DNA of 64,000 nucleotides from Limisphaerales bacterium (GCA_047608975.1 JBLFYM010000006.1:5029-69028); one strand, 5' to 3'; numbered from the stretch's first letter, positions 23,422 to 51,270 are shown. Notes: generated by a model from the sequence alone, not told the origin. Program-made: numbers and translations.

Positions 23422-23436
23422 ATGAAAATGGAGCCA
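23422..23436 (-). mobile_element. Putative att site: direct repeat of tRNA-Thr 3' end plus flank
   Basis: atgaaaatggagcca versus atgaaaaatggagcca at 51187-51202 (tRNA 3' end). Confidence 0.55.
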
Positions 23437-23471
23437 TCAGACATGGCGTAACCCCCTATCATTGGCGTTTT
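23431..23471 (+). repeat. 41-bp perfect inverted repeat, left copy
   Basis: gagccatcagacatggcgtaaccccctatcattggcgtttt is the exact reverse complement of 50890-50930. Confidence 0.95.
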
Positions 23472-23530
23472 CGGTGAAAAATCGCCCTTTTTCTCTGCGG
23501 TTCGAGAACTCTTTCCAACGGGAGGCGCAT

Positions 23531-23902
23531 CGTGACAGAGGGGTGTGTCACGTCTCGGTGTCGCAATAGTCAATGTTTGCAGTGTTTTTTCGCGGGTAGT
23601 CTGGAAGTTGTGACTCCGCTCAATTTGGGGCGTCACGCCATTCGCCGAGGGTAACTATGTTTAACTCCATGTTTAACTCGATGTGTGACGGGTGTGACGG
23701 CCCTTTGGGCGAAGCCCAACCCCCAGTGAGGACGGGCGCTTGGCCCAGAGCGGGGCGGTCTCTCTCTCTCCCTTTATCTCTTTCTTATCATTGAAATAGA
23801 AAAAGTAGTGTCACAGGTGTCATCAATTGTGTCCACGGATCTGGCGCTCTTGGAGCGACGACCCGCATGCCGGGTGGTGTGGGAGCCGGAGTTAACACTC
23901 CC
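23531..23902. repeat. Cluster of short direct and inverted repeats, ori/iteron-like
   Basis: cgtgaca-N8-tgtcacg, atgtttaactc x2 (12-bp period), gtgtgacgg x2 (9-bp period), CT/AT tract, gtgtcac/gtgtcat (9-bp period, inverted), ggagt-taac-actcc. Confidence 0.7.
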
Positions 23903-23954
23903 GGCGACCCGATTAGGCAGCCGGTAAAATCTCAAATCCATATCCGCTCCGTCA

Positions 23955-24539
23955 TCAGTGATCGTGTATGTGTCCAGACCGCCGTAACTCAAAGAAACAC
24001 CGAGCACAAGCCTCCAAGTCAGCTTCGGCGTCGTGTGCGCCATGATACTCCTGACCGAATAGGTGCTCGTGAAGCTCCTGCAAGGTCGGCCACTTGTATC
24101 CTGTGCCAGGCTGCTTGGGTATCCGGCAGAGATCGGTCGTGCTCTTCATGGTGCAGACTGCCGGTAAGCTGAGAAACGCTCCGAGACACCTCGAACGAAC
24201 AAGCTCGGCACCGACAACGCCTCGGTCGTATTCGAGGTTGTGGGCGACCAATGTGACGCGCCCGCGCTGTATCGCGGCTGTGAAACGAGTGAGCACTCGC
24301 TCGACATCTTCGCCCGCACTTACCGCCTGTGCATGAGTAATCCCGTGAATTCGTGACGCCTCCGCCGGAATCGTAAAACCACTCGGACGGACAATGAAAC
24401 TGTGGGGGTCGCACACGGAACGCGAGGAATCGTAAATCGCCCATCCGAGCTGAACTATTCTCGGCCACCCGTCAACATCCTGAACTGAAAGATTGCGACT
24501 GCGCGGCAAACCGGTCGTCTCACAATCAAAGAAAAGTAG
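23955..24539 (-). CDS. DEDDh 3'-5' exonuclease (DnaQ-like); no start codon upstream of the ExoI motif
   Basis: In-frame LLFFDCETTGLP upstream of the TTG at 24509; AHNLEYD; HDAEAD. Confidence 0.8.
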   Translation of the reverse strand, partial: LLFFDCETTGLPRSRNLSVQDVDGWPRIVQLGWAIYDSSRSVCDPHSFIVRPSGFTIPAEASRIHGITHAQAVSAGEDVERVLTRFTAAIQRGRVTLVAHNLEYDRGVVGAELVRSRCLGAFLSLPAVCTMKSTTDLCRIPKQPGTGYKWPTLQELHEHLFGQEYHGAHDAEADLEACARCFFELRRSGHIHDH

Positions 24540-24546
24540 TCCCTGA

Positions 24547-24909
24547 CTAAATCCCGTGCTGTTTCCGGTGGCAGTCCCGGCATATTGCCTTGAGGTAACT
24601 CATGTTCTCTCGCTTGAAACTCATGCGACCGAAACTCTTGGGGTAACGCACGTGATGCACCTGCTTCCACTTGTCCGACCGCAGATACTCCCCGTATGCG
24701 CTGTGCCACTCCTCGCGCCGCTCTGCCTCCTGCCGCTCTCTCTCGATACGCTGCTGCTCCAAACGGGTCCGTAACTCGCGCTCACGCTGCTCTCGCTCCT
24801 GCTGCTCCCGAAGAAGCTCCTCTGGCGTCTTTGGTGGAGTCTGCTGCAGCCACCAGCCGAAAATGTGGACTGCGAGCCAGGTACTGCCAATGATGAGAAA
24901 AATTTCCAT
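24547..24909 (-). pseudogene. TM-coiled-coil protein with HNH-like C-terminus, apparently internally deleted
   Basis: MEIFLIIGSTWLAVHIFGWW TM, E/R/Q coiled coil, YGEYLRSDKWK joined directly to QVHHVRYP...LKAICRDCHRKQH. Confidence 0.65.
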
Positions 24910-25079
24910 GCGCTGTTGTTGTGTGGCTCTCGCCATGACCGAGGGCGTAGGCTGCCTAACGTCCTGCATCAGCCACCGACTGCCGGCGGCGAGCTTTGAT
25001 TCCACCCCGTGACAGCGGCGGGGTAGCTACCCTCAGACATCGATTCCCCGAGGGCAGGTGGTTGGTATCCTCGCCTTGT

Positions 25080-25120
25080 GTCTGCCCGGCATGGGCGTGT
25101 TGTAATGGGGTGAAAGTCCC
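25080..25120 (+). mobile_element. Group IIC intron 5'-end remnant
   Basis: GTCTGCCCGGCATGGGCGTG...GGGTGAAAGTCCC resembles IIC 5' consensus GTGYGCCCGGCATGGG...GGGTGAAAGTCCC; follows a short hairpin; no RT or domain V seen. Confidence 0.55.
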
Positions 25121-48886: not shown

Positions 48887-49093
48887 GCGTCCGCACAGAA
48901 CCGAGGCACGGTTGATTTGGATCGCTGACACAGGCCCGGCCGCCGTAGGCCTACTCGGACTCCTCTTTGTCGTGGTCCATACCACCGGATTCCTCTGGAG
49001 ACGTCTGGGAAGCGGCGTCGCCCTTGATTGACCATCGTTCGCGTGGGTATCCAAATCCGTGCGTTTGAAAACTCATCATTCCACAGATTCAGT

Positions 49094-49927
49094 TCACCAC
49101 AGATTGGGATGACTAGCGGCACCCGCTTGCAAAATCCATTGTCGCCTCCGCTTGCCGCCCTTGGACTCAGTCCCTCGGTGCGTTTCTGAATCAATGACCT
49201 CAGTGGGGGATTGATTCAGAAACGCACCGGTGTTGTCGCCGGCGAACTCGACGAAGGGATGATCGAACCGACGACGCGCTTCCCGAATCTCCTCCATCAC
49301 GCGAGCTACGGGTTTCTGATTGAACCGACGGGTTATCATCAGACTTGCACCGCAGAACTCACATGCTCGCGGATAGCCTCTCGAAGTCTGAATCGTGATG
49401 CGGTTGTAGGAACGATTTGCCAACAAATCGAATCGCGGCCGCACATACTGATCCGGCTCAAAAACTCGATCCGTCGCGCCTTGGTATCTCGGAAGCAATC
49501 TACCGGCCGCGGCGTCACTCACGACCTGTGGCCAGATGCCTTCTGCGCCATTTATCACCACGGTGTCACAATGTTGCCGCGCTTCGTCCGGGAGCTGGGA
49601 AACGTGCAATCCTCCCATGACCACCTTTACCCCTGCCCTACGGTATTGATTGGCGACGCGATAAGCATCCTCAATTCGCGCCGTCAGCGAAGAGATCCCC
49701 ACCAGGTCGAACTGCGGCCAATCCGACACCTCCTCGAGACGATCCACTTCCAGATACTCGATCTCGTGTTCGCCCGGTGTGAGACCGCCAACCGTAAGGA
49801 GACCGAGGCTAGGCAGTGACGCTATCACTTCGCCCCGCCTGACGAATCCCGGCAGCGTGACACCCAGCTTCGCCAACTCCGGATCGAAAACCCGAACGCC
49901 ACTCATGGCAATCAGGCCGATCTTCAC
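49094..49927 (-). pseudogene. B12-binding radical SAM protein, truncated and mutated
   Basis: B12-binding N-terminal domain; TSRGYPRACEFC (first Cys of CxxxCxxC is Tyr); FAGDN, then unrelated sequence and early stop. Confidence 0.8.
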
Positions 49928-49945
49928 TCTACGAGTTCCTTCGTC

Positions 49946-50889
49946 CTACTCACTCGATTCCTTAATTCGATCAATCGTCTGCGTGACCGCTCGCCACGCA
50001 TTTCGAACTTGCAGCGTTGGCAACGAAGCTTTGTTTGTTCGCCCCTCCAATTCGGCGACATAAGATTGCAGTCCGGGAACAAAGGAATTGTTGGTCCGCA
50101 CCCATTCCCGCCCCTCGGGCAGTCGCGCCATCCCTTCGAATAGGAGTTTGAACCTTGGGGAGTTCTTTTGCCCAAGCCAACTGATCCGGTTGGCAATCCT
50201 CTGTATCCGATTTGACTCTGCCCCTTCCCGCCTCGGCTGAAAGTGCGTGGAAAACTCGTCCAACCGTTGCATGAAATGCGCACGCACCCACGCGGGATGC
50301 TCAGGACTGAGCTGATCGAAGAATCGAGGCAATTGTTCGAAGATTTCATGTTCGAACGGTTTTGGTGGAAGCTGACGCGCAGGCGCAAATTCATCGGGAG
50401 TGTGAATGGACAAGAACTCGATCGCCCCACAGTAGTCCTCCGCCTCAACGCGTCGATCGACTTCCGCATTAAGACGAACCTGTTGCTGCGGGTAGACCGC
50501 GACAGCGATCCAAAAGAGAGCGACGACCAGCAGCCAACGCCACCGAACGCGATCCTCGTTTCGCGGAGGCAGATCGGCGAGTTGACAGCGCATGTCGAAC
50601 TGGGAACTCAGCACCGCACTCGCCACAGCAAGAATCGGAAAACCCCACAAGGACACCATGAAGGCAGTACCCAACACGGAAAGGACCTCCTCCTCTTCCA
50701 GCGAATTCCGCATCCCACCCATCCCCGCGACGATCGCCTTCGCAAGCGTCCCTCCAAAGAACGTCACGGCCAAAACTTCACCCAAAGCCGCAGTTAGAAC
50801 CCAGAGCGAGGCAACCCAAACCGGCGTTTTACAGAGCACCTACAGAACGCGAATCATCAAGGCCACCCGCCAGAAGGAGACGATTCCCA
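49946..50889 (-). pseudogene. Membrane protein, 5'-truncated with in-frame TAG
   Basis: Frame reads ..FLGIVSFWRVALMIRVL-TAG(50842-50840)-VLCKTP.. and runs into the 41-bp repeat without a start. Confidence 0.6.
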
Positions 50890-50930
50890 AAAACGCCAAT
50901 GATAGGGGGTTACGCCATGTCTGATGGCTC
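50890..50930 (-). repeat. 41-bp perfect inverted repeat, right copy
   Basis: aaaacgccaatgatagggggttacgccatgtctgatggctc. Confidence 0.95.
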
Positions 50931-51128
50931 AGTTTCCCCACGCTCTATTGATCGCAGCCCACCGCCACTGGTGGGCCTGAATCACGGCTGAGCGGCTGGA
51001 TTGGGGGAGTGGTGGAAATTCGAACGTGCAACCGTTCAAATCTGGAGAATGATACTCTCTTCGCGCCGTCGTGTTGCCGCTCAGTCCGTCGACGACGATT
51101 CTACAATTCCTTACTATTAGTGGCCAGC

Positions 51129-51148
51129 TTGGTGCGATTTGGTGCGGT
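51129..51148. repeat. 10-bp tandem direct repeat near tRNA (possible integrase arm sites)
   Basis: ttggtgcgat ttggtgcggt. Confidence 0.55.
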
Positions 51149-51194
51149 TAACAGACAATGAAGAAATGACAAAGAAGGCAAAAAACATGAAAAA

Positions 51195-51270
51195 TGGAGC
51201 CAGCGATCAGATTCGAACTGATGACCCGTTCATTACGAATGAACTGCTCTACCAACTGAGCTACGCTGGC
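51195..51270 (-). tRNA. trnT: tRNA-Thr (CGT)
   Basis: 76-nt cloverleaf GCCAGCGTAGCTCAGTTGGTAGAGCAGTTCATTCGTAATGAACGGGTCATCAGTTCGAATCTGATCGCTGGCTCCA with encoded CCA. Confidence 0.98.

Follow-up and report, generated by a model that had tools for sequence, protein, structure and literature searches.

The stretch of DNA considered here, termed the window, comprises 64,000 nucleotides (nt) of a Limisphaerales bacterium (GCA_047608975.1, JBLFYM010000006.1:5029-69028), and it harbors a block of 27,761 bp (23419-51179) beside a gene for tRNA-Thr(CGT), in which a putative zinc-acquisition regulon of Fur/Zur type is located. The tRNA gene (51195-51270, minus strand) was recognized by ARAGORN and by Rfam (RF00005, 69 bits), and it is intact in the alleles with and without the block. 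The carrier genome is a metagenome-assembled genome (MAG) of 277 contigs. Its closest genomes are MAGs of marine Verrucomicrobiota that bear the labels Limisphaerales, Verrucomicrobiales or Verrucomicrobiia, and the host is thus a member of the marine Verrucomicrobiota; a planctomycete label, which the PSCyt/PSD domains and the sulfatases had brought forward, was rejected because the relatives are Verrucomicrobiota MAGs. The organism is present in many seawater and sea-ice metagenomes, and these served as the source of the population evidence, which was drawn from JGI metagenome contigs and from Logan contigs of sequencing runs.

The block is missing from part of the natural population, and the empty site is the evidence on which its boundaries are based. 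A JGI contig of 35 kb (L037), which was retrieved by an exact-protein look-up of the flanking sulfatase, joins position 23418 of the window directly to position 51180, and everything between is missing. Its genes are ordered as sulfatase, LuxR-type response regulator, response regulator, the same tRNA-Thr(CGT), sulfatase and PSCyt/PSD protein. This contig is 99.9% identical to the window over 51177-61028 and 11707-21435, and 99.15% identical over 21435-23436, the 2 kb adjoining the junction. The identical join of 23418 to 51180 is found in a Logan contig (L039) and in run X7, while the right-junction contigs of runs X1 and X3 match the window from 51180 on and carry ACGTTGCGGGAGAAATCAGAGCTGTCGGGA, which equals window positions 23389-23418, before it; in a reciprocal contig, the left flank continues into AACATGAAAAATGGAGCCAGCGATCA. 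An empty tRNA-Thr site in close relatives, which the earlier note on this DNA had put forward as the way to check its proposal of an island, was thereby found in L037, L039 and runs X1, X3 and X7. Two side observations concern the same flank: L037 holds about 93 extra nt at the intergenic point 21435 relative to the window, and a cluster of five single-nucleotide polymorphisms (SNPs) and one indel lies at 23267-23287, just upstream of the sulfatase start.

Both alleles occur together in single samples. The depth over the island was 7-9 against 13-14 over the flanks in run X1, and 5-8 against 15-16 in run X3, and a second copy of the ExbB/ExbD region of the island at 80% identity or above was not found in the mixed-allele runs. 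The lack of a second copy, together with the depth of about one half, indicated that part of the population is without the block outright. As to the island form, its right junction is crossed by at least five JGI assemblies from different samples, all in one orientation, and its left junction by one JGI contig (L040). Since independent assemblies agree on the junctions, the island form did not arise through assembly error, and the misassembly against which the earlier note had cautioned is excluded. Five island contigs carry T at the SNP at 23332, which is situated 87 nt from the junction on its outer side, and two empty contigs carry C; the latter two differ mutually at six nearby sites, and this linkage and these differences imply that the alleles belong to distinct lineages. 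The comparison covers three unrooted haplotypes, from which the direction of change is not derivable. A four-gamete argument for recurrent gain and loss was dropped, as SNP 23332 is linked to the island state in real contigs.

The earlier note had started from a repeat of the tRNA 3' end. At 51187-51202, ATGAAAAATGGAGCCA (16 nt) includes the tRNA end, and its counterpart at 23422-23436 is ATGAAAATGGAGCCA, which is shorter by one A. The existence of this copy and its same orientation were confirmed, while its identity was not, for the two sequences agree in 15 of 16 nt with one indel, and their longest exact match is 12 nt, of which the tRNA supplies 8 nt. When the boundaries are taken from the empty site, the right, tRNA-side copy extends over 51180-51202 as AAAAAACATGAAAAATGGAGCCA, consisting of a 15-nt spacer and the last 8 nt of the tRNA, and the left copy over 23419-23436 as GAAATGAAAATGGAGCCA, which constitutes the first 18 nt inside the island and is a diverged form of the right repeat with two small indels. 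The island edge is therefore located 15 nt past the CCA end of tRNA-Thr(CGT). The left junction is GTCGGGA followed by GAAATGAAAATGGAGCCA and TCAGAC; the right junction is AAGGC followed by AAAAAACATGAAAAATGGAGCCA and GCG; and the junction of the empty allele is GTCGGGA followed by AAAAAACATGAAA(A/T)ATGGAGCCA and GCG. The right copy equals the empty-site sequence of L039, from which L037 differs by one spacer SNP at 51193. The left copy is polymorphic as well, with G replaced by A at 23424 in one run.

Whether such a repeat exceeds chance depends on how the boundary is known. An exact same-strand match of at least 12 nt in the window was obtained for 25% of random 50-nt probes, a match of a 16-mer within one edit for 16% of random probes, and the tRNA end aligns better at other places in the window than at the left copy. 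In a search of the whole window, the repeat does not exceed the chance level (p about 0.16-0.25), and on this showing alone it would have fallen under the refuting condition named in the earlier note. In a boundary-conditioned test, the 25 nt that open the island at its left edge were aligned with the 25 nt that follow its right edge, and a score as high as theirs was reached by only 5 of 200,000 25-nt pairs drawn at random from the genome (p about 2.5e-5). Because the boundary is fixed independently by the empty site and the score is rare, the repeat is a true boundary repeat. Accordingly, the proposal of the earlier note, an integrase-less island at tRNA-Thr with these bounds, is supported by the empty site, while the sequence evidence from which it had been derived was statistically insufficient by itself; the repeat stands at the chance level across the window and well above it at the boundary.

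The cargo of the island includes genes for surface proteins, transport and metal handling. From left to right, a TonB-dependent outer-membrane receptor (25939-28077, minus strand), which shares 78-86% amino acid identity with its counterparts in all four congeners, is followed by a choice-of-anchor-M or anchored-repeat transporter-associated surface protein (28034-29887, plus strand; NF038134, 7e-54), by a fused membrane (MFS-like) and spermidine-synthase-like protein (29949-32543, minus strand; 81-85% identity in the congeners), and by a 1002-aa surface protein with four 600-bp periodic repeats (32593-35601, minus strand). An open reading frame (ORF) of 137 aa separates the latter from the island-borne Fur-family (Zur-like) regulator (36227-36700, plus strand), which is matched by PF01475 (3e-11) and by the Fur and Zur models of NCBIfam, although its scores against the NCBIfam models for Fur, Zur and PerR are all below the cut-offs. 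Thereafter lie the genes of a TPR protein, an ABC-2 permease and an ABC ATPase (36657-39161, minus strand), a COG0523 (CobW-family) metallochaperone GTPase (39248-40531, plus strand; PF02492, 2e-43, and PF07683), a group encoding two thioredoxin-fold proteins, a MerC-like membrane protein and an ABC-2 permease (40550-43562, plus strand), and a DUF3450-ExbB-ExbB-ExbD-TonB-TPR energy-transduction module (43639-48886, plus strand) with 68-94% amino acid identity in the congeners. One of the thioredoxin-fold genes contains a 12-bp tandem repeat in four units (41900-41959), which is polymorphic in length; one run is 36 nt shorter there, and the product measures 368 or 384 aa in JGI contigs and 391 aa in the window. 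Near the right end, a 297-aa predicted membrane protein (49946-50839, minus strand) is without a family match and is not a recombinase.

A 19-bp palindromic operator, ATTGCAAA-N3-TTTGCAAT, is situated at 28183-28201 between the receptor and the surface-protein genes, and further copies were located at 36173-36191, 39198-39216 and 39247-39265. With at most two mismatches, the palindrome occurs at five sites in the 6.4 Mb of the genome covered by the operator scan, and four of the five are in divergent promoters of the island. The fifth (contig C5:81840-83158) precedes a gene for a ZIP-family transporter and then a second Fur-family regulator, which is the single Fur paralog elsewhere in the genome and is 28% identical to the island regulator. 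Judged by this arrangement, a core Zur and a paralog on the island may have one operator type in common, and the island reads as a predicted self-contained metal regulon of the Fur/Zur type. The regulon is probably zinc-responsive, an assignment made because of the Fur-family regulator, the COG0523 protein and the operators held in common with the promoter of the ZIP transporter.

The inner edges were described in the earlier note as pseudogenes and debris of mobile elements on both sides, a description which was partly confirmed. On the right, a B12-binding radical-SAM gene is retained as a 5' fragment of 277 aa (49094-49927, minus strand), whose nucleotide matches to relatives start at 49230, and beside it lies a dispersed palindrome (49176-49229) resembling a miniature inverted-repeat transposable element (MITE) or a repetitive extragenic palindrome, with one 100% copy on contig C53. 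On the left, a cassette of 1.3 kb (23860-25165, minus strand) encodes a DEDD 3'-5' exonuclease (23955-24509) and an HNH-like protein (24547-25005), and it is accompanied by a MITE-like palindromic dispersed repeat (25607-25788), of which about ten partial copies are found on other contigs. The two ends of the cassette are repeated elsewhere, on contigs C134 and C27 and, in several copies, in the relatives G003-G005. The cassette is possibly a small mobile or homing unit. The two dispersed repeats at 25607-25788 and 49176-49229 break contigs in every metagenome examined. Adjoining the left end, a non-coding region (23531-23902) has many GTGAC/GTCAC motifs and short tandem repeats; in metagenome contigs it varies strongly and is broken into fragments.

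A further feature of the ends is an inverted repeat, whose left arm (23426-23474) begins 7 nt inside the left end of the island and whose right arm (50887-50935) lies 244 nt inside the right end; 41 nt are perfect and 49 nt agree at 94%. The two arms are the sole copies in the genome, both within the island, and they are missing from the empty allele. The repeat holds a Shine-Dalgarno-like AGGGGG with an ATG, and the outer tip of each arm resembles the 3' end of tRNA-Thr. Neither a target duplication beside the arms nor, in the assemblies, any sign of an inversion between them was found. Loose contig ends at the 41-nt repeat were considered as inversion or alternative joints and rejected, as the shared repeat maps to both arms; a seeming continuation of the inverted repeat beyond the island was likewise rejected as not significant. 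For the 244-nt segment at the right end, Rfam and folding gave nothing. Exact-pattern scans for the core of the inverted repeat and for the 3' half of the tRNA were also without a match in the collection metagenome_contigs, from which near-identical genomes are probably absent.

The genes of the island are shared with four congeners. In G002, the block of 32.6-48.9 kb has the same gene order throughout, and in G001, G003 and G004 the order is kept in part; the module of receptor, surface protein and SpeE-like protein is likewise conserved. Next to tRNA-Thr(CGT), the cargo was not found in the congener stretches examined: G002 has no tRNA in the 60 kb around its metal locus, G001 has none in 20 kb of contig C17, and the metal-locus contigs of G003 and G004 (6-8 kb) are too short, while their tRNA-Thr contigs are without cargo genes. 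The tRNA-adjacent position in the window therefore looks derived as far as these gene orders go. In G002 (contig C59, L024), tRNA-Thr(CGT) is located 1.5 kb from the homologs of the window genes at 54-7906, which here are 43 kb away, and an older insertion at tRNA-Thr may account for the stretch of 8.0-23.4 kb (sulfatase, PSCyt/PSD and HXXSHH pairs); no repeat remnant was found near 7.9-8.1 kb. Between the species, gene order is shattered into blocks of 1-16 genes, and the neighbours of tRNA-Thr differ in every species, so that congener synteny, including the arrangement in G002, gives no polarity.

On the whole, the block is likely to represent a past site-specific integration at the 3' flank of the tRNA gene, whose integrase is gone and which is now present or absent among strains. 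According to this proposal, the block would have entered the site once by site-specific recombination at an attachment site in the tRNA flank, with a crossover about 15 nt beyond the CCA end that left the tRNA intact, and the recombinase would have been lost later or would always have acted in trans. The polymorphism would then reflect lineages that never received the block or, equally possibly, its precise excision or loss, and the island state would have spread by homologous recombination in the conserved flanks. Carriers would gain high-affinity zinc scavenging, which would be derepressed at low zinc. Integration is preferred because of the boundary repeat and the seemingly derived position at the tRNA.

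Several observations weigh against this proposal. The tRNA part of the repeat, TGGAGCCA, is 8 nt only, the repeat copies differ by indels, and an overlap of 0-1 nt is shared at the inferred crossover. Such an overlap is unusual for tyrosine recombinases, provided that the distal copy has not decayed since the integration; the repeat as a whole is shorter and less perfect than is typical of tyrosine-integrase islands. The earlier note had recognized no integrase inside, and this held when Pfam, NCBIfam and PHROGs were scanned with greedily chosen, non-overlapping island ORFs (at least 70 aa) and three alternative ORFs, among which no recombinase of any class, no excisionase and no integrase remnant was detected; a six-frame search with PF00589 gave six places in the genome, none of them on this contig, and no integrase adjoins tRNA-Thr(CGT) in four relatives. 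Among the few tyrosine recombinases of the genome is counted a 426-aa open frame on contig C32, whose PF00589 match is weak. A circular form or attP, which would appear as a loose end running from 51179 into 23419, was not seen in the contigs of the 12 runs giving data, although contigs drop rare variants. The 41-nt inverted repeat is not accounted for by the integration model. Moreover, the composition of the island is native, with a GC content of 0.55-0.58 compared with 0.576 +/- 0.012 for the genome and without a step in GC or tetranucleotide distance at 23.4 or 51.2 kb, and the cargo is present in all four congeners at 50-95% amino acid identity, much like the flanking core genes. Taken together, the native composition and a cargo shared across the genus speak against a recent acquisition from a foreign source as judged from these comparisons, and the data fit a loss from some strains no worse than a gain. 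The inference of the earlier note that the island was acquired was therefore not confirmed, and the compositional profile it had named as a check revealed no step at either edge.

The opposite history, in which the block is ancestral at the site and the empty alleles are deletions by illegitimate or short-homology recombination, never site-specific, is the rival that has to be weighed most closely, and it is considered unlikely. It would explain why the cargo, native in composition, is found across the genus and has diverged as orthologs do, why the island is without a recombinase, and why the empty strains, having no other close copy, lack a cluster that every congener has. The sequence left at the empty site speaks otherwise: a deletion through the 12-nt identity would leave GGGAGAAATGAAAATGGAGCCAGCG, while GGGAAAAAAACATGAAA(A/T)ATGGAGCCAGCG is observed, which is the complete tRNA-side copy and not a 12-nt recombinant, so that a deletion by simple recombination between the repeats of today's island allele is disfavoured. 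A random end placed 15 nt past the tRNA, with a repeat of the tRNA end opposite to it, is improbable in itself; the cluster of the congeners was not found at tRNA-Thr, whereby the position here looks derived; and two distinct empty haplotypes are opposed to a nearly uniform island junction. It is similarly doubtful, at about the same level, that a whole zinc-starvation regulon belonging to the core of the genus, with repressor, operators, receptor, chaperone and TonB motor, was captured at tRNA-Thr as a single cassette without integrase in a polar marine verrucomicrobium and is still gained and lost precisely through a trans-acting recombinase, perhaps via the 41-nt inverted repeats.

These repeats have also to be considered in their own right, since an inverted repeat that is perfect over 41 nt, unique in the genome, borne by the island and placed 7 nt from its left end might bound a transposase-less cassette (41-49-bp arms) which a transposase moves in trans. 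Such a cassette is very improbable here, as the right arm is 244 nt inside the boundary given by the empty site, no target-site duplication stands beside the arms, no transposase was found in the island, and the right-junction JGI contigs all show one orientation and one position. That the whole picture arises from a coincidental repeat, a misassembly or a chimeric bin contig can scarcely be maintained: the repeat is indeed at chance level window-wide and the genome is a MAG in 277 contigs, but independent assemblies from many samples agree on both junctions, the depth is consistent, and the repeat falls exactly on the boundary. The preferred explanation thus remains an integration at the tRNA flank with subsequent loss of the integrase.

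Several known systems resemble the island in part. Among them are Zur regulons in which COG0523 GTPases and TonB-dependent zinc receptors occur, and the predicted regulon shares with them the Fur-family repressor, the AT-rich palindromes in divergent promoters, the COG0523 protein, the receptor and a ZIP transporter elsewhere in the genome. Unlike typical Zur regulons, it has its regulator, operators and uptake machinery packed in one dispensable block, with a putative specificity for zinc, and it is extended by anchor-M surface proteins, an MFS-SpeE fusion and a dedicated TonB system. The high-pathogenicity island of Yersinia at tRNA-Asn combines metal acquisition, its own regulator and a short direct repeat derived from the tRNA, and immobilized variants of it exist. 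The present island is comparable in that a metal cluster with a regulator lies at a tRNA 3' end with a short tRNA-derived direct repeat, whereas islands of the Yersinia type deviate in GC content, encode an integrase of the P4 type and repeat about 17 bp of the tRNA without mismatch, and none of these features is found here. Cis-mobilizable elements (CIMEs) and other integrase-less elements flanked by attachment (att) sites, as well as the flexible genomic islands of marine bacteria, possess att-like repeats without a recombination module. The island likewise has att-like bounds, lacks a recombination module and is present or absent among co-occurring strains. Spread by flanking homologous recombination or by trans-acting recombinases, as in CIMEs, is presumed, and trans-mobilization is hypothetical for the present block.

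The closest described analogues are the tycheposons and their degenerated remnants, by which nutrient-uptake traits of a core type are captured at tRNAs. Tycheposons are reported to integrate beside tRNA genes, leaving partial-tRNA repeats, and to vary between strains of marine populations; degenerated remnants in Prochlorococcus and other marine bacteria are reported to retain partial tRNAs, with integrases that are lost or fragmentary (bioRxiv 10.1101/2020.12.28.424599). The features held in common with the island are the tRNA site, the partial-tRNA repeats, a nutrient-uptake cargo and the strain variability. The two are set apart in that the island is without a tyrosine recombinase or replication module, resides in a Verrucomicrobiota host, repeats 8 nt of the tRNA, and carries a putative zinc cargo instead of one for N, P or Fe; its 41-nt inverted repeat has no parallel in the tycheposon descriptions consulted (bioRxiv 10.1101/2020.12.28.424599). 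As the recombinase that defines tycheposons is lacking, the island resembles them in the way it works and is not counted as a member of this class.

A tRNA-linked island that has lost its integrase is a general phenomenon already familiar, and the present one offers a clean triplet of attL, attR and attB which would be a useful test case for trans-mobilization or precise loss. If a trans-acting recombinase were indeed at work, a tycheposon-like "nutrient module on demand" would exist outside the cyanobacteria, and zinc ecotypes might be expected in sea-ice and seawater populations. The evidence from natural populations shows that a predicted zinc-acquisition regulon varies between strains and can be dispensed with in an uncultured marine lineage of the Verrucomicrobiota, which makes the island a concrete candidate for micronutrient-driven ecotype differentiation.

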